Shown piece by piece: positions 1 to 6,613 of a stretch of DNA of 11,494 bases. This stretch comes from a virus. Its lineage: Duplodnaviria; Heunggongvirae; Uroviricota; Caudoviricetes. The stretch lies in IMG/VR virus record IMGVR_UViG_3300018488_000078. One strand, 5' to 3'. Position numbers and translations under genes: made by a program. The notes below the pieces were generated by a model. That model searched no databases. It saw nothing but the letters and a program-made list of their open reading frames with translations, and had not been told where the DNA came from. How positions within the stretch are numbered: the stretch's first letter is position 1; every line of letters starts with the position of its first letter.

Positions 1-251
1 TCATAACGGAACGTGCCGGACTTGTAGAACGTCAGCGTGGTGCTGGTCTGGTCAGCATCAACCGCCAGAATGCCAACGGCAGTACCGTCGGTGGTGCCAT
101 CCCACGCAACCAGCTTACGGGTGGAGGTGTCCAGCATCAGCGGGGTCATTGCAGGCGCTTTCGCACTCAATCCGCCGGGCGCGGTTGCGGTATGAGCCGG
201 GTCACTGTTGCCCAGCGGCTGGTAATGGGTAAAGGTTTCTTTGCTCGTCAT
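1..251 (-). CDS. D: Head decoration protein gpD (lambda-type), N-terminal 83 codons; 3' end lies beyond the window start
   Basis: Minus strand from ATG at 249-251 translates [56 protein letters not shown]..., matching lambda gpD as I recall it nearly residue for residue. The start is 9 nt downstream of the C stop (261-263), as in lambda. Confidence 0.9.
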
Positions 252-260
252 AAACATCCC

Positions 261-656
261 TTACACTGGTGTGTTCAGCAAATCGTTAACGGCATCAGAT
301 GCCGGGTTACCTGCAGCCAGCGGTGCCGGTGCCCCCTGCATCAGACGATCCAGCGCAGTGTCACTGCGCGCCTGTGCACTCTGTGGTGCTGCGGCCAGAA
401 TGCGGCGGGCCGTTTCCACGGTCATACCGGGAGTTTCTGCCAGCACGCGGGCCTGTTCTTCGCGTCCGTGAGCCTCCTCACAGTTGAGGATCCCCATAAT
501 GCGGCTGTTTTCTGCCGCAACCGCAGCGGTGATCTGCGCGTTCACGTCCGGCTGCGCCGCGCTGGCGTTTTCGCCCTCCGTCGCTGGCACCACGTCAGTA
601 ACGTCAGCCTGCGAAGCAGTGGCTGAAACAGTTGTTGATTGAGTCTCTTTGGTCAT
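261..656 (-). CDS. nu3: Scaffolding protein Nu3, translated from an in-frame internal start within C
   Basis: ATG at 654-656 in the C frame, preceded by AGGAGG. Product MTKETQSTTVSATASQ... is the C-terminal 131 residues of C, the nested C/Nu3 arrangement known from lambda. Exact start not verifiable here. Confidence 0.65.
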   Translation of the reverse strand: MTKETQSTTVSATASQADVTDVVPATEGENASAAQPDVNAQITAAVAAENSRIMGILNCEEAHGREEQARVLAETPGMTVETARRILAAAPQSAQARSDTALDRLMQGAPAPLAAGNPASDAVNDLLNTPV

Positions 657-1580
657 TCGCCCTCCTGAGAGACGGGATTTACGTGCATCCAGTGCATCAC
701 GCATAACGGTGATCGCATCGGTGCTGTTGACAAGTTCATCAGCCAGTCCGGCATCAATGGCCTCCTGACCGCTGTACACTGCAGCCTCGGTATCCAGCAC
801 AGCCTGCACGGACAGGCCGGTATATGCCGACACCTTCTGCGCAAACATCCGGCGGGTTGCGTCCATCCGGGACTGCAGTGTCTCCCGGACGTCATCCGGA
901 AGATGGCTGTAGGGGTTGCCATCCACCTTATGGCTGCCGCTGTAAATCAGCGTGATTTCCACACCCTGTTTCTCCAGCGCAGCACCGTAATTACTGTGAG
1001 CCATCATGACGCCGATGGAGCCTGTCCGGGCGGTCTGCGTGACCAGACGCCGGGAGGCGGCACTAGCAAGCAACTGACCTGCACTGCAGTTCATGTCGTT
1101 GGCAAGCGCCCATACCGGTTTTATGTCACGCACACGGGCGATGATGTCAGCGCAGTCAAATGCCCCCGCCACCATCCCGCCGGGCGTGTCCATATCGAGC
1201 AGAATGCCGTCCACCATCGGGTCGCTGGCAGCCTGTTGCAGACGGGCGATAATGCCGTTGTAACCGGTCATCCCCGAATACGGCTGCAGCGCTCGCGTCC
1301 GACTGACCAGCGTGCCGGACACCGGCAGCACGGCGATGCCGTTCATGACCTGATAACTGCGGGCCTGTCGTGGTCCGTCATCATCAACGGATAACGCCAG
1401 CGCCGCGGGTGCCTCTCCGGCAGTCAGGCTGTCGCCGGATACCGCATCCGTCAGGCGGCTGATCCCAAGCTGGCCTGCAAGCGCACAAAAGAAAACCCGC
1501 GCATAGGCGGGTTCAAGCATCAGCGGCTCATTAAAGGCCATACTGGCAATATGCGGGAGATTACGCAGCTCTGCTGTCAC
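261..1580 (-). CDS. C: Capsid assembly protease gpC (S49/ClpP-like prohead protease), lambda-type
   Basis: 439-codon frame from GTG at 1578-1580 with GAGGAGGAG just upstream. Translation VTAELRNLPHIASMAFNEPLMLEPAYARVFF...DAVNDLLNTPV has the length and sequence I recall for lambda gpC. It overlaps the 3' end of the B frame by 20 nt, the lambda arrangement. The ORF-track extension up to 1715 is a read-through of the upstream frame and is not used. Confidence 0.9.
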   Translation of the reverse strand: MTAELRNLPHIASMAFNEPLMLEPAYARVFFCALAGQLGISRLTDAVSGDSLTAGEAPAALALSVDDDGPRQARSYQVMNGIAVLPVSGTLVSRTRALQPYSGMTGYNGIIARLQQAASDPMVDGILLDMDTPGGMVAGAFDCADIIARVRDIKPVWALANDMNCSAGQLLASAASRRLVTQTARTGSIGVMMAHSNYGAALEKQGVEITLIYSGSHKVDGNPYSHLPDDVRETLQSRMDATRRMFAQKVSAYTGLSVQAVLDTEAAVYSGQEAIDAGLADELVNSTDAITVMRDALDARKSRLSGGRMTKETQSTTVSATASQADVTDVVPATEGENASAAQPDVNAQITAAVAAENSRIMGILNCEEAHGREEQARVLAETPGMTVETARRILAAAPQSAQARSDTALDRLMQGAPAPLAAGNPASDAVNDLLNTPV

Positions 1581-2334
1581 TCTTCTCCTCCTCTGTTGAT
1601 TGTCGCAGCCCGGATTCAAATGCCGCAGCCGCCCAGGCGGGCGGTTTAAGACCGGCTGCACGGCGCTCCATCGTTTCACGGACCTGCTGGGCAAAAATTT
1701 CCTGATAGTCGTCACCGCGTTTTGCGCACTCTTTCTCGTAGGTACTCAGTCCGGCTTCTATCAGCATCACCGCTTCCTGTACTTCTTTCAGACCATCGAT
1801 GGCCATACGACCGGAGCCTATCCAGTCGCAGTTCCCCCAGGCACTTCGGGCTTCCTGAAAACTGAAGCGCGCTTTTGAAGGTAACGTCACCACGCGGCGA
1901 GCGATGGCCTCTTCCAGCCAGCACAGAAACATCTGGCTCGCCTGACGGGATGCGACGAATTTTCGCCGCCCCATAAAGTACGCCCACGACTCGTTCGCAC
2001 TGGCCCGTGCCGTGGAGTAGCTCATCTGGGCGTAATTCCGGGAAAGCTGCTCATACGAGACACCCAGTCCGGCAGCGATATACCGCAACAGTGACTGCTC
2101 AAACACGGAGTAGCCGTTATCCGTGTCCTGAGCCGTCTGCAGGTTCAGTGAGTCCCCCGGCATCAGGTGCGGCACTTTTGCGCCTCCCAGCCGGACCGGT
2201 GCTGCGGCGTAATACGCGGCAATTTCACCAATCCAGCCGGTCAGCCTTTCCCGCTGCTCCTGACTGTTCGCGCCCAGAATAAAATCCATCGCTGACTGCG
2301 TATCCAGCTCACTCTCAATGGTGGCGGCATACAT
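1561..2334 (-). pseudogene. B: Portal protein gpB, C-terminal 257 codons only; N-terminal half absent (truncated gene)
   Basis: Translation MYAATIESELDTQSAMDFILGANSQEQRERL...AFESGLRQSTEEEKSDSRAA matches the C-terminal part of lambda gpB as recalled; lambda B is roughly twice this length. Upstream of 2334 the frame runs only 11 more codons (ILFFSCLFIKA, AT-rich) before a stop at 2368-2370, then non-coding repeat DNA. Confidence 0.85.
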
Positions 2335-2469
2335 CGCCTTTATGAAAAGACAGGAAAAAATAAAATTTAAAAACAGTACATTACGAATGCTCAGACCTAT
2401 CGTTTAAAGGAGTCGCAATACACACTGCAATACACGATTATTTATAAGATGAGCGGCATCCGTCATAAA

Positions 2470-2708
2470 GCTGGTGGATGCTTTTTCTATGCATATATGC
2501 ACAGTTTTAGTGGGCGTTAATGTCGATATAGGGATCCCCATATCGAGATTGGATACCTGGCTTTTTTCCGGTTAACCTTTAATCAGGCTGGTGGGCTTTA
2601 CCTGTTTTGTATGAGTGGTCATCATGACCATGTCATAACAAAAACCCCATATTCGTGGTTTTTCTGTGTCGGGCTATTCTGTCGTTGCTGTGCTGATTTG
2701 GCTGGTGG
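2470..2708 (+). repeat. Cluster of three Chi octamers (5'-GCTGGTGG-3') at 2470-2477, 2587-2594 and 2701-2708, same strand, spaced 117 and 114 bp
   Basis: Octamers read directly from the sequence; the second and third share the 12-mer GGCTGGTGGGCT. They lie in non-coding DNA between ORF93 and the truncated B gene. Confidence 0.85.
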
Positions 2709-2763
2709 GCTGAATCATCATTACGGCGATGCAGCTATGTAGACGTTCCGGCCTCCTCAAATT

Positions 2764-2925
2764 GAGGATTGTGGAAGAATCAATGGGTTAGTCTTACTTT
2801 CCCGACATCCCCCAATGGGGGTTTTCGAAACAATCAATAGCTTAGGCTTACTTCCCCGATTTCCTGCATTGCAGGTTTTCGAAATAATCAATGGGTTAGG
2901 CCATCGTGCAATTTTGCACTTTGCC
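2764..2925. repeat. Three tandem units of about 54 bp, each carrying a perfect IHF consensus (WATCAANNNNTTR) at 2768-2780, 2822-2834 and 2876-2888
   Basis: AATCAATGGGTTA, AATCAATAGCTTA and AATCAATGGGTTA sit exactly 54 bp apart; units 2 and 3 also share GGTTTTCGAAA immediately upstream. A palindrome CCTCAAATTGAGG (2745-2757) precedes the array. Confidence 0.7.
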
Positions 2926-3149
2926 AGCCAGCGCAATGTCGCGTTATCAGTCCTCGGATGTGAGGGATGTAGCCAGCTTTTCCCCCAGTGGGGGATATCC
3001 AGCACCGACGGCTTAACTGTGCGTGCCAGCACAAGGTAGCCTTGAACTACTTACTGCATCCCATCTTACAGGCCGTGCCTTCCTGCTTAACTTTTTGCAA
3101 TGCAACAAGTCAGCCAGCGCAATTTTGCGTTATCGGGAATATCAGCAAG

Positions 3150-3431
3150 TTACCGCCGCAATCGTTCCGGCTTCTTCCACTGGTAAGTATTTTTCGCGCT
3201 CTCCCTCCGTTGTTGAGAACGGCGACGATATGCCAGCAACTCAAGGACTCTTGTTCGTATGTTGCGCATATCCACGCCGTTAAGCTCAATACCGTCACGG
3301 CGCATCACCTCAGCCACTACACGCACATAATTATCTGCGGTCACGCTGTCCGGCTGCGTGGCCTGTTCGTCATGCTGCTTGCTGATTCCACAAGCACGGC
3401 GGATTAATCGCAGTATTTCGGATTCAGTCAT
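3150..3431 (-). CDS. Hypothetical protein, 93 aa, in the position where a large terminase gene would follow the small terminase
   Basis: ATG at 3429-3431 starts 11 nt after the TerS stop; weak Shine-Dalgarno, so translation may be coupled. Product MTESEILRLIRRACGISKQHDEQATQPDSVTADNYV... has no recognisable domain by eye. It is far too short to be a large terminase. Confidence 0.45.
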   Translation of the reverse strand: MTESEILRLIRRACGISKQHDEQATQPDSVTADNYVRVVAEVMRRDGIELNGVDMRNIRTRVLELLAYRRRSQQRRESAKNTYQWKKPERLRR

Positions 3432-3442
3432 AGCGTACTACG

Positions 3443-3985
3443 TTACTTATCTTTATTCGGCTGCAACTTATCCGGTACGTTTCCGGCAGTTTCCATCAGA
3501 TAATCGGACAGCATCAGCGGTATGTTTTCGTCAAGTTTTGCGCATGCGTTACAGGCTCTGATAACTTCTTTTTTCAGTCCATCCAGCATAGACGGCTTCA
3601 TGTCGGGAAACTTCCTTGTCATGGCAAGCGGCAGGCTGTCCATGATTGAAGAAATCTGACTCGCCAATTTTGAAAGCACGTATATACAAAACGCTGTATC
3701 AATAACGTCGCCGCGTTCGCGCTCGTTTTTAAGCTCCTGCGCCTCTGCCTGTGCTGTCAGCAATCTGATCCTGACTCGTAGGAGTTCATCATCATCAATC
3801 TCGCCTTTGTCGTCTGTAATCTGGTTAATTGCATTGCTAACCCGATTGTCTATTACGCTGGCAACATCATAAAACGCCTCGCGGCCTTTACGTTCAACGG
3901 GAGTCACTCCCCACTTGTCGAACGCTGTCGCACTTACACGGCAGCTTTGCGCCATGTTTTTTTTGTTCATCAGGTGCGATTTCAT
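3443..3985 (-). CDS. Terminase small subunit, Nu1-like, with divergent N-terminal (DNA-binding) region
   Basis: C-terminal two thirds align by eye to lambda Nu1: RLLTAQAEAQELKNERERGDVIDTAFCIYVLSKLASQISSIMDSLPLAMTRKFPDMK versus lambda RLTRAQADAQELKNARDSAEVVETAFCTFVLSRIAGEIASILDGLPLSVQRRFPELE. The N-terminal ~70 residues differ. Start chosen at ATG 3983-3985 (GGGGA 6 nt upstream); GTG at 3995-3997 and ATGs at 3968-3970 and 3953-3955 are alternatives. Confidence 0.85.
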   Translation of the reverse strand: MKSHLMNKKNMAQSCRVSATAFDKWGVTPVERKGREAFYDVASVIDNRVSNAINQITDDKGEIDDDELLRVRIRLLTAQAEAQELKNERERGDVIDTAFCIYVLSKLASQISSIMDSLPLAMTRKFPDMKPSMLDGLKKEVIRACNACAKLDENIPLMLSDYLMETAGNVPDKLQPNKDK

Positions 3986-4096
3986 CAATATCCCCACTTA
4001 AGTAATGTTTCAGGTTGGTGTATTGGCTTTATCTTTTCCTTTTTATTCATAGAGATAGAGCGAACAACAAAACCACCACCAGCACCCGAAAAAGGC

Positions 4097-4160
4097 TCAT
4101 AAATAGCGAAAACCCGCGAGGTCGCCGCCCCGTAGCCTACCGGATCACCGGAAAGGACCC
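4097..4160 (-). other. Lambda-type cos site: cosQ-like segment (4141-4160) and cosN with 12-nt cohesive-end sequence GGGCGGCGACCT (4119-4130); cosB side divergent
   Basis: Minus strand reads GGGTCCTTTCCGGTGATCCGGTAGGCTACG-GGGCGGCGACCT-CGCGGGTTTTCGCTATTTATGA. The cohesive-end 12-mer and flanking cosN sequence match the lambda left end as I recall it, and the upstream segment matches the lambda right-end/cosQ region except for a few bases. Below 4097 the sequence departs from lambda cosB. Confidence 0.85.
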
Positions 4161-4186
4161 GCCAGCCAGAGCGGGCCCTAATTTCA

Positions 4187-4570
4187 TCAACCAATCAGCT
4201 TATAGCGACCATCCCGTGCATTGCGGCGTACACGCTCAATCTTGAGGCATAGCGCCGCATCTGGCTTTTTTGGGACAGGTACGCGGCAATATTCAGAAGC
4301 GCGAGGAATATTATTTATCCAGTCGATCACTTCACTTAAATACCAGGCCTTACGCCCTTCCGTAACCTGCACACGCTCCGGGAACTCTCCACTAGCCTCA
4401 AGGTTTAGCAGTGTACGACGACTCAGGGTTGTAATTTCCATCACCTGATTCATATCAACAAGGCGCTCGCTTAAACACATTTTGTCAGCGATAGCTTTTA
4501 ATTCCTCTACAGCTGGATTCGGGTACATCATTTCGGCAATTGGCTTAAGGTCATTGTAATCATTCTGCAT
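4187..4570 (-). CDS. AlpA-family (MerR-like HTH) DNA-binding regulator with ~40-residue N-terminal extension
   Basis: ATG 4568-4570 with GGGGGA upstream. Segment VMEITTLSRRTLLNLEASGEFPERVQVTEGRKAWYLSEVIDWINN fits the AlpA/prophage CP4-57 regulator HTH pattern. Stop at 4187-4189 lies 26 bp from cosQ. Confidence 0.65.
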   Translation of the reverse strand: MQNDYNDLKPIAEMMYPNPAVEELKAIADKMCLSERLVDMNQVMEITTLSRRTLLNLEASGEFPERVQVTEGRKAWYLSEVIDWINNIPRASEYCRVPVPKKPDAALCLKIERVRRNARDGRYKLIG

Positions 4571-4581
4571 TGTATCCCCCT

Positions 4582-4923
4582 TTACACACGAGCCAGCGGC
4601 TGAACAGAAATACCTGAGCCAACAAACGCTGCAACCTTTACTGACAGTTCTTTAACAGACTCAGGCCAGTTCAGAGCATCAACATTTAAGACACCTGTCT
4701 TATAGACCTGAGCCTGTGTTTTTTTCGCGGTGTCGATTTGTACAGCGGAAACATAAACCGCTTTACCTACGCTCGAACCATCCCATACCACCAGTGCACC
4801 TGTTGCATCTTCCTGCATCAGTGGCGTAAATGCAGGAATTACCCCTTTATTAGCTGAAAATATCCCCAGCGTAGTCACCAGTGCTTCAGTGCCAGCCATG
4901 AGTTCAGTGTAATGAGTAGCCAT
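4582..4923 (-). CDS. Head decoration protein, gpD-like, divergent from the lambda-type D at 1-251
   Basis: ATG 4921-4923 with GGGGGAG upstream. By-eye alignment to lambda gpD: PAFTPLMQEDATGALVVWDGSS...YKTGVLNVDALNWPES...AAFVGSGISV versus [22 protein letters not shown]...[16 protein letters not shown]...TAFAGTAISIV. Confidence 0.8.
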   Translation of the reverse strand: MATHYTELMAGTEALVTTLGIFSANKGVIPAFTPLMQEDATGALVVWDGSSVGKAVYVSAVQIDTAKKTQAQVYKTGVLNVDALNWPESVKELSVKVAAFVGSGISVQPLARV

Positions 4924-4932
4924 TGCTCCCCC

Positions 4933-5979
4933 TTAGCCAATGCGAACGGTAACAAAACGATTGATGCGGGCCGGTATTGGCTGTGGTGCTGAATGTGTCT
5001 GCACATATTCAATAGCCGGATCACCAGGCACAATATAGTTTTTCGGTGCAAGTTCGGCTTTAGTCAGCCCCATTCGGATTAGCTCCGGATCCTGAATACC
5101 GCCATAGGCGACAATCCCCTGAAGAGCCGTATTGCCAAGCACCATCAAATCAGGATCAAGGAAATGTTTTTCTGTTCCGTCCTCGTCGGTATAACGTCCG
5201 CTGTAAACAACAATCGCAACATCGCCCATATACCCTTTAAAACTCACCGAATCACCAAGGTCTTTAAGGGCCGTTTCCAGTTCGGAATTAGAACCACGAC
5301 GGGTATCCAAAGCCTCTTTTATCGCTCTGAATGAACGGTATTTCTTCCATACATTACCACCCATAATGATGATATTAGTGACGCCCTCACTAAATTCTGC
5401 GTAGCTCTCAATATCATCATTTGGATCAAAAGTTTCTTTATCCTTACCTGACCACTCAGTACCGCCAGACTGAGTGATGATATTTTGTGGTTTTATATTC
5501 CAGTCCAGCTCATAACGTTCAATACCATCGCCCTCAATGATATTTTTCCCCGTTGTGATTGCCTGAACAGCAAGCCATTCAATACGTGCACGAATAGCTT
5601 TAGCCTGATTTACAATCGCCTGTTTAACTTTAATATTACGCGCCCCAAAAGCATTGTATTGCTCAGGTGACACACCAGCAGGGCGCACAGCTAACTTATT
5701 TGGATCAATGCTGCTTTTCGGCTTCATATAACCTGGACGAATTGTTTTTGATTCGTATCCCTCATCTCGTGAAACTTTACTGCCCACCATAGGAGAGCAA
5801 AACGCCGCGATCGGGATATTTGGATCGTCGATCGTATCAAGAATAATGTCTCTCGATTCAAACATTACCGAGCGAGTGAAAAACAAACTGGTAAACAACG
5901 CATTTAATTTTTTTTGCACATCTTCAGCATTAGCCACCTGCACAAGCTGTGTAGGCGAATATAAATCAACCATACTCAT
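4933..5979 (-). CDS. Major capsid protein, lambda gpE family, divergent
   Basis: Shared blocks with lambda gpE as recalled: NIITQSGGTEWSGKDKETFDPNDDIESYAEF versus NITQSGGTEWSKRDKSTYDPTDDIEAYA, and LDTRRGSNSELETA in both. N-terminus MSMVDLYSPTQ parallels lambda MSMYTTAQ. ATG 5977-5979 abuts the GAGG motif, so the ATG at 5971-5973 (6-nt spacer) may be the real start. ORF-track extension to 6060 is not used. Confidence 0.85.
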   Translation of the reverse strand: MSMVDLYSPTQLVQVANAEDVQKKLNALFTSLFFTRSVMFESRDIILDTIDDPNIPIAAFCSPMVGSKVSRDEGYESKTIRPGYMKPKSSIDPNKLAVRPAGVSPEQYNAFGARNIKVKQAIVNQAKAIRARIEWLAVQAITTGKNIIEGDGIERYELDWNIKPQNIITQSGGTEWSGKDKETFDPNDDIESYAEFSEGVTNIIIMGGNVWKKYRSFRAIKEALDTRRGSNSELETALKDLGDSVSFKGYMGDVAIVVYSGRYTDEDGTEKHFLDPDLMVLGNTALQGIVAYGGIQDPELIRMGLTKAELAPKNYIVPGDPAIEYVQTHSAPQPIPARINRFVTVRIG

Positions 5980-6144
5980 CCTCTTTACATTCATTACAAA
6001 TAATTGTGAATATATTCTATTACCGATGTCTGCTATGCGAATACATGCAACCAAGTGCAATGTTGTATAAAATATGCCGTAACAACTTCAGTGCTGATAA
6101 TTCGTGTTAATGTATTTACTTCCTTTGGTCGGGATTTATGTAGC

Positions 6145-6184
6145 ATGCCGGAAAATCTATTTTTTTCCGGCATCTTTTTGTTTG
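6145..6184 (+). terminator. Stem-loop (11-bp arms ATGCCGGAAAA / TTTTCCGGCAT, 7-nt loop) followed by CTTTTTGTTTG; terminator-like on the plus strand only
   Basis: Read directly: arms 6145-6155 and 6163-6173, T-tract 6174-6184. On the minus strand the hairpin is not followed by a U-tract. No plus-strand gene is annotated upstream, so its role is unclear. Confidence 0.35.
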
Positions 6185-6190
6185 CAGAAT

Positions 6191-6613
6191 TTAAAACGGT
6201 ATATTATCGCCGTACGGATCATCATTCCCCGACTGTTGTTTTGCCCTGTTCAGTGCGTCAGTGGCCTGCCCCTGCTGGCCTTTTTTGCCGCCCGGTCGCG
6301 CCGTTCGCGCACTGATTACGCTGTCTGCGATAACCTGCCAGCCCCGCCGCGTTTCGCCGTTCTGGCCTGTCCACTGGCTTACCTGCATGTTACCCGCCAC
6401 GCTCACCAGTTCGCCTTTGTGGTGTTTTGCCAGTGCGTCGGCCTGTCTGCCAAACGCCAGGACGGATAACCACATCGTCGCCGTTCCGTCATCTGCCTGG
6501 CTGCACGGCAGGGGAACCGCCATACTCGCCATCGCCATTTGTGTCCCTTTGCTGGTGGTCTTTAACTGCGGGTCAGCCACCAGCCGCCCGTAAGCCGCTA
6601 TCTGTGCTGTCAT
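6191..6613 (-). CDS. ssb: Single-stranded DNA-binding protein (SSB) with acidic C-terminal tail ending DNIPF
   Basis: ATG 6611-6613 overlaps the upstream stop (ATGA). Glycine/glutamine-rich linker and C-terminal ...DDPYGDNIPF resemble the E. coli SSB tip ...DDDIPF. Confidence 0.8.
   Translation of the reverse strand: MTAQIAAYGRLVADPQLKTTSKGTQMAMASMAVPLPCSQADDGTATMWLSVLAFGRQADALAKHHKGELVSVAGNMQVSQWTGQNGETRRGWQVIADSVISARTARPGGKKGQQGQATDALNRAKQQSGNDDPYGDNIPF

Follow-up and report, generated by a model that had tools for sequence, protein, structure and literature searches.

Genes and features of the locus

The stretch of DNA analyzed here (the window; 11,494 nucleotides of the virus record IMGVR_UViG_3300018488_000078) begins in the head gene block of a lambda-like prophage, continues with the genes of a phage satellite, and ends inside an insertion sequence (IS). 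The prophage is referred to as the helper, and the loci with which the window was compared are designated L001 to L013. The genes and features are as follows.

1-251 (-): head-decoration gene D, 5' part (helper prophage; cut by the window start; gene call in L010, annotation in L001)
261-1580 (-): gene C, S49 peptidase/scaffold, 439 aa (helper prophage; Pfam Peptidase_S49, E 7.5e-44; S49 family peptidase in L001)
1561-2340 (-): portal gene B, 3' fragment (helper), codons 275-533 plus stop (Pfam match; 780/780 identity to L002)
3150-3431 (-): satellite ORF, 93 aa, no family match
3443-3997 (-): satellite small terminase subunit, Nu1-like (annotated start 3443-3985, 180 aa; Pfam Phage_Nu1, E 3.5e-24)
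4097-4161 (-): satellite cos region, with an exact lambda cosN GGGCGGCGACCT at 4119-4130
4187-4570 (-): AlpA-family HTH protein of the late zone, 127 aa (Pfam Phage_AlpA, E 7.6e-9)
4582-4923 (-): satellite head-decoration protein, D-like (Pfam HDPD, E 4.5e-15)
4933-5973 (-): satellite major capsid protein, E-like, 346 aa (Pfam Phage_cap_E, E 3.8e-41)
6191-6613 (-): satellite single-strand DNA-binding protein (Pfam SSB, E 5.5e-16)
7207-8961 (-): satellite D5/P4-type primase, 584 aa (Pfam D5_N and DUF5906)
8958-10064 (-): DUF4222 protein, three small ORFs, and an Icd-like ORF (9867-10064)
10255-10560 (+): YlcI/YnfO-family ORF (annotation in L001; no Pfam match)
10618-10797 (+): 59-aa ORF; apart from it and the YlcI/YnfO-family ORF, no plus-strand gene was called in the satellite
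10894-11353 (-): BRO-N gene of the satellite, 3' part, cut short by the IS (BRO-N in L001)
11354-11494 (+): IS3-family insertion sequence, left end (TGAACCGCCCC...; orfA ATG at 11409; thousands of matches annotated as IS3 family transposase)

The portal gene is broken between positions 2340 and 2341

The minus-strand frame at 1561-2334 encodes 257 aa, and its first in-frame start (2332-2334) is the native Met277 codon of the portal gene. As the sequence-only reading had recognized, this frame is the C-terminal portion of a lambda-type portal protein: instead of a full-length match to Pfam Phage_portal_2 (PF05136), it gave a match to the C-terminal part of the profile only (238-354 of 354, E 1.5e-26), and it corresponds to residues 277-533 of a 533-aa portal. 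For comparison, the intact portal gene of E. coli 2014C-3075 (L002) encodes all 533 aa and covers profile positions 2-354. Over 1561-2340, the window was identical to this gene at 780 of 780 positions, whereas 2341-2440 agreed with it at 25 of 100, which is chance level; the break therefore lies at 2340|2341. Consistent with this, the GC content changed from ∼0.60 to 0.42 across the break. Thus, the break that had been suspected within 2335-2370 is real, and comparison with strains carrying an intact portal gene, as the earlier reading had suggested, mapped it to a single position. The frame above the fragment runs through 21 non-portal codons past the last portal codon before it meets a stop (2404-2406), not through 11 as had been counted.

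The junction was found in 58 of 5,426 complete E. coli genomes, and these come from many hosts and countries. An assembly artefact, which had been named as the finding that would undo the break, is excluded by its occurrence in these complete genomes.

The DNA to the right of the break is a PICI-type satellite

The satellite genes (2341-11354) are co-oriented with the portal gene, except for the two short plus-strand ORFs. Compared with their paralogues in the helper, the satellite Nu1-, E-, and D-like proteins are 36% (over the full length), 42%, and 38% identical, respectively, and the satellite small terminase subunit (TerS; 180-184 aa) aligns with the helper Nu1 to the C-terminal end. The general features of Gram-negative PICIs were found for the element: a length within ∼10-15 kb, int-alpA (seen in related loci), Bro, primase/replication and late zones, no tail or lysis genes, and a helper-type packaging signal. 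The gene content to the right of the break is that of a PICI-type satellite and not that of a phage. What had been taken for "unrelated DNA" belongs to a satellite of lambda-like phages and carries a lambda cos together with genes resembling E, D, and Nu1.

The exact lambda cosN lies directly upstream of the Nu1-like terS of the satellite. The 65-bp satellite cos is 95% identical to the cos upstream of the helper Nu1 and likewise 95% identical to phage lambda cos, and the region also matches the cos of lambda relatives; in a DNA search of the satellite body against sequenced phages, only this cos region (65-80 bp) was matched.

Two other classes of satellite were considered for the element and rejected. 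A cf-PICI was rejected on finding only a major capsid protein, a decoration protein, and TerS, with no portal, protease, or TerL among the satellite genes. A P4-like satellite was rejected on gene content, with no Pfam match to Sid, Psu, or Delta among the scanned ORFs; the traits in common with P4-like satellites are the D5/P4-type primase, AlpA, and the Icd-like ORF. An Rfam scan of the whole window (E<=1) returned only two chance miRNA-like matches and no C4 or IsrK immunity RNA.

The missing half of the portal gene lies beyond the satellite in related genomes

As the gene layout of E. coli Q5 (L001) shows, the BRO-N gene is followed by an AlpA gene and then by a 413-aa tyrosine integrase, directly beyond which lie the 5' half of B, W, the large terminase gene A, and the prophage's own Nu1. 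The same layout was seen in L003, L004, L006, and L008, which were recovered via the exact primase sequence, and the distance from the 3' half of B to the missing 5' half in related E. coli genomes is ∼10.9 kb. Both portal fragments run into non-portal sequence, such that neither encodes a complete portal and no replacement sequence is supplied; the insertion thus sits inside a late gene of the prophage, which it splits at codons 275-277. We then reconstructed the intact site from two 300-bp flanks, the one left of the core taken from the window and the one beyond the core taken from the int side of L001. Over the rejoined 600 bp, identity to intact portal genes was 100% in at least nine genomes, and coverage reached 80% or more in 3,117 genomes.

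The sequence-only reading had offered two accounts of the break, and the results decide between them. A mobile element inserted into the portal gene was the correct account: the 5' half of B, W, A, and Nu1 lie beyond the integrase, and the flanks rejoin perfectly. The other account, a deletion of A, W, and the 5' half of B that fused the lambda-type head block to an unrelated neighbor, draws on what is seen within the window alone, in which these genes are indeed missing between the Nu1-like gene and the B fragment. However, related genomes have the missing genes intact on the far side of the element, joining the flanks yields a perfect portal gene, and the break coincides with an 8-bp attachment core and arm-type repeats (see below). 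Moreover, the Nu1-like gene that had been taken as the other edge of the gap belongs to the satellite; it is a 36%-identical paralogue of the helper Nu1, which is itself also present. We therefore consider the chance of a deletion to be negligible.

The portal break is the right-hand attachment site of a helper-embedded satellite

"Helper-embedded PICIs" (HE-PICIs) were described by Tommasini, Mageeney and Williams (2023, NAR Genom Bioinform 5:lqad036; PMC10111431). The integrases of these satellites form one clade, and nine lambda-type late genes contain the 14 sites that they target; the portal gene has three of them, including B:Phage_portal_2:241 (PMC10111431). The attachment sites and junctions at the locus are as follows.

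2333-2340 (-): 8-bp identity block AAGGCGAT (ATCGCCTT on the + strand), attR crossover region, common to attL, attR, attB, and the reconstructed attP
2341-2470 (-): satellite arm of attR, with the doubled motif TGTATTGCantgTGTATTGC at 2415-2434
attB: ...ATTGTGAAGGCGATGTATGCC...
attL: ...ATTGTGAAGGCGATTTATGTC...
attR (window): ...TTCATAAAGGCGATGTATGCC...
attP (reconstructed): ...TTCATAAAGGCGATTTATGTC...
attB junction, restored state: ...GCCATTGTGAAGGCGATGTATGCCGCC...
attP junction, excised satellite: ...CTTTTCATAAAGGCGATTTATGTCTATC...

Within the portal frame, the AAGGCGAT block spans the codons for Lys275 and Ala276 and the first two positions of that for Met277. For the site B_Phage_portal_2_241, Supplementary File 1 of PMC10111431 lists CP006834.2/1830842-1841738 (an element of 10,897 bp) and CP015912.1/4478746-4489644, with the block "aaggcgat"; both genomes (CP006834.2 = H56, CP015912.1 = H33) were among the best matches here. 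Further, the published attR row Eco10269 (119 nt; PMC10111431) matched the window exactly at 2273-2391, and AAGGCGAT at 2333-2340 lies near the published position 241 of Phage_portal_2. In the current Pfam model, the crossover falls at profile position ∼237-239 (the N-half ends at 239 and the C-half starts at 238), compared with the published 241, an offset that we attribute to the Pfam model version or to counting.

The doubled motif TGTATTGCAnTGTGTATTGC in the window (2415-2434) occurs again ∼132 bp from the core on the int side (31282-31301 of L001). The same doubled repeat was reported as the HE-PICI-specific motif tgTGTATTGCantgTGTATTGCa (PMC10111431), and, as in the published family, it stands on both sides of the attP core. 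The int-side distance of ∼132 bp agrees with PMC10111431, and the attR-side distance, 78-100 bp depending on the reference point compared with 81 bp in PMC10111431, is in rough agreement. The doubled arm motif TGTATTGC adjoins both ends of complete copies: exactly two copies were found in each of L001, L003, L004, L006, and L013, the loci for which the retrieved sequence included both attL and attR, and a single copy was seen in L005 and in each of L007-L010. In L001, TGTATTGC occurred 9 times compared with 1.9 expected. The window also has, at 2519-2550, a near-perfect palindrome of 16+16 nt with no spacer (AATGTCGATATAGGGA / TCCCCATATCGAGATT); at ∼180-215 bp from the att core, it falls between the arm motif and a set of 54-nt repeats described below.

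The portal break is the right-hand attachment site (attR) of the satellite. Overall, we are almost certain that the locus holds a ∼10.9-kb phage satellite inserted site-specifically in portal gene B of a lambda-like prophage, at the site B:Phage_portal_2:241. That the source looks like a short metagenome contig ending in an IS might suggest an assembly chimera, or a transposon or IS insertion, instead of site-specific integration, but the identical junction in 58 complete genomes of such varied origin, the integrase with its arm sites and conserved core, and the lack of transposon-type terminal inverted repeats or a target-site duplication leave such an origin virtually no likelihood. A transposon or IS as the cause of the break itself was likewise rejected, the integrase, arm sites, and att core being found there instead.

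The integration module chooses the site

The 413-aa integrase of L001 has Arm-DNA-bind_3 and Phage_integrase domains, and its gene was present in 65 complete genomes, nearly the same set as those with the junction. In related loci, int with an adjacent AlpA gene lies at the upstream end of the satellite; in the window, the contig stops in the IS before that end. In sequence, the B:241 integrase is closer to that of a capsid-gene HE-PICI (54% identity) than to those of two chromosomal PICIs (39-40%), values that, as far as sequence identity can tell, fit the published HE-PICI clade.

E. coli strain 48 (L013) has a 97.8%-identical integrase at the same portal position. Its satellite body differs, with a RepA helicase instead of the D5 primase and an additional PerC-family regulator, and so does its helper prophage, which has DLP12-like lysis genes. 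Because a near-identical integrase is thus associated with a different satellite and a different helper, the site must be selected by the integration module rather than passed down from one insertion. In this locus (1600-1625 and 13443-13450), the attR core reads AAAGCCAT and the attL core AAGGCGAT, the portal codons being synonymous; the difference means either that two mismatches are tolerated in the 8-bp block or that exchange takes place at its left edge.

A further arrangement was observed in L005 (GCA_028533445.1 ABKNDA010000010.1, 6238-16620). Here, the satellite body, attR, and the portal 3' half are as in the window, and from window position 10135 on there follow a different integrase (409 aa, 40% identical) and an AlpA gene adjoining the chromosomal pntB, with no attL. 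This locus looks as if an embedded satellite had recombined with a chromosomal one, or as if the chromosome had been rearranged between two satellites.

The satellite ends in a non-coding tail with 54-nt repeats

Between the last satellite ORF and attR lies a non-coding tail of ∼800 bp (2341-3149), which contains the following feature.

2748-2909 (.): three tandem 54-nt units, each with a short hairpin and one perfect IHF-consensus match

The hairpin stems of the units differ but stay complementary (CCTCaaattGAGG, CCCCCaatGGGGG, and CCTGCattGCAGG), and each hairpin is followed by TTTTCGAAA and then by a perfect IHF consensus (AATCAATGGGTTA or AATCAATAGCTTA). These three IHF-consensus matches are the only ones in the window, in which 0.48 would be expected. 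More hairpins of this kind reach ∼3135, and the tail region folds better than shuffled sequences (z -4.2, minus strand). A two-unit version was found in a capE-site HE-PICI (L011) and in a chromosomal PICI adjoining clpS (L012). The repeat region gave no Rfam match (E<=1), and no description of the 54-nt module was found in the PICI literature cited here. It is a speculative and rather improbable suggestion that the tail with its 54-nt modules represents an undescribed cis-acting element of enterobacterial PICIs. Judging from the motifs, the tail could act as an IHF-shaped architectural site for excision or packaging or as an array that stops read-in transcription from the flank.

A model for reversible interruption of the portal gene

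The only HE-PICI to have been induced experimentally is Eco567.11capE, which is integrated at E:Phage_cap_E:80 (PMC10111431). After mitomycin C treatment, the helper-satellite composite excised and replicated, and 11capE then excised precisely at ∼2 h, restoring gene E, as measured by qPCR and deep sequencing; virions were not recovered (PMC10111431).

For the satellite in the window, we conclude that the tyrosine integrase recombines the AAGGCGAT core of attP with the identical 8 bases that B has at codons 275-277. The satellite lies co-oriented in the late operon and splits B, with the 5' half by int (outside the window) and the 3' half in the window, and the helper has no intact portal gene as long as the satellite stays integrated. 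On induction, precise excision of the satellite, probably late, would restore B, as it does gene E in the case of 11capE. Late transcription of the helper would read into the satellite, and the satellite TerS, whose alignment with Nu1 extends across the presumed TerL-binding region at the C-terminal end, would direct the large terminase of the helper to the satellite cos. Packaging would then proceed via the satellite's own lambda-type cos, into shells that may be made from, or influenced by, the satellite E'/D' proteins, and the portal, protease/scaffold, and tails would be supplied by the helper.

We infer from this comparison that the portal gene is interrupted reversibly. The earlier statement that the head block "cannot make a portal from this copy" is accordingly right for the integrated state and too strong beyond it, as excision, by analogy with 11capE, should restore B. 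It is a further, speculative and rather improbable suggestion that the interruption serves as a timer, allowing the E'/D' shell proteins to accumulate before capsid assembly, which the portal nucleates, can start.

State of the copy in the window

Similarity to IS-free copies stops at 11353-11356, within the BRO-N gene, and the IS is probably the reason that the contig stops at this point. The metagenome contig L010 (ENA, ERZ27272485 k141_55241), retrieved by exact-protein look-up and 99.96% identical, ends in the same IS; both the window and L010 thus stop short of the int end and attL, in the region beyond the IS that the earlier reading had proposed to inspect, and this copy may or may not be complete. 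When GTDB representative genomes were scanned for exact matches to the IS/BRO-N junction, none was found.

We therefore considered whether this copy is a relic, in which the satellite (and possibly the helper) no longer excises, the portal is permanently inactive, and the head block is dead cargo. Consistent with decay, the IS3-family insertion at 11354 lies in the BRO-N gene, the closest complete relative (L003) has one IS in place of alpA and another after gene E, the helper of L001 has a frameshifted lysis gene, and many HE-PICI helpers look truncated (PMC10111431). However, the 3' portal fragment shows 100% identity to functional-looking portals, and every satellite ORF in the window is open, which together point to a recent or still-maintained element. 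Further, BRO-N is not known to be needed for excision, and the int end lies out of view. Although a relic is a realistic possibility, we consider it rather unlikely and favor an element whose excision would restore the portal gene.

Comparison with known systems

The phenomenon, the site, and the element family are already known, having been published in 2023, and the window represents one more copy, disrupted by an IS. With the published HE-PICIs at B:Phage_portal_2:241, it shares the target gene, the codon region, the block AAGGCGAT, the arm motif TGTATTGC, the co-orientation, and the four-zone layout. It differs from them in nothing essential, only in that this copy has an IS3-family insertion in BRO-N and that its int end lies outside the window. 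The apparently broken portal is therefore a case of a parasite within a parasite and not of prophage decay, the satellite holding an essential helper gene hostage until excision. Split late genes of this type are best annotated as att junctions at which a satellite is embedded, rather than as pseudogenes or as deletions.

The capE-site HE-PICIs resemble the element in their integrase clade (54% identity), in being embedded in a lambdoid late gene, in their late zone (E', D', AlpA, terS, and the 93-aa ORF), and in the non-coding tail, which is 81% identical. Unlike the element in the window, which is in the portal gene, 11capE targets the capsid gene. In addition, 11capE is said to be without terS (PMC10111431), whereas the window element and the capE-site element L011 each carry a Phage_Nu1 match or a "terminase small subunit" annotation.

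PICIs of the EcCICFT073 type with Rpp (Fillol-Salom et al. 2019, PMC6739421; review PMC9026076) similarly have int, alpA, a primase, and late genes, carry a lambda-type cosN directly upstream of a small packaging gene of the winged-HTH type, and need lambdoid helpers, but they integrate in chromosomal genes. Moreover, the Rpp proteins of these PICIs have 135-153 aa and presumably no TerL-binding C terminus, in contrast to the satellite TerS of 180-184 aa, which is aligned with Nu1 to the C terminus. A sequence search of PDB chains with the satellite TerS gave no match, and an identity with Rpp is thus unsupported.

Genes split by an excisable element are also known from the B. subtilis skin element in sigK and from the phage in Listeria comK. 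These cases are also discussed in PMC10111431. As in the window, no replacement sequence is supplied there, and only precise excision restores the gene. Unlike in sigK and comK, the split gene here belongs to the helper phage, and the switch is thought to serve the satellite and not the cell.
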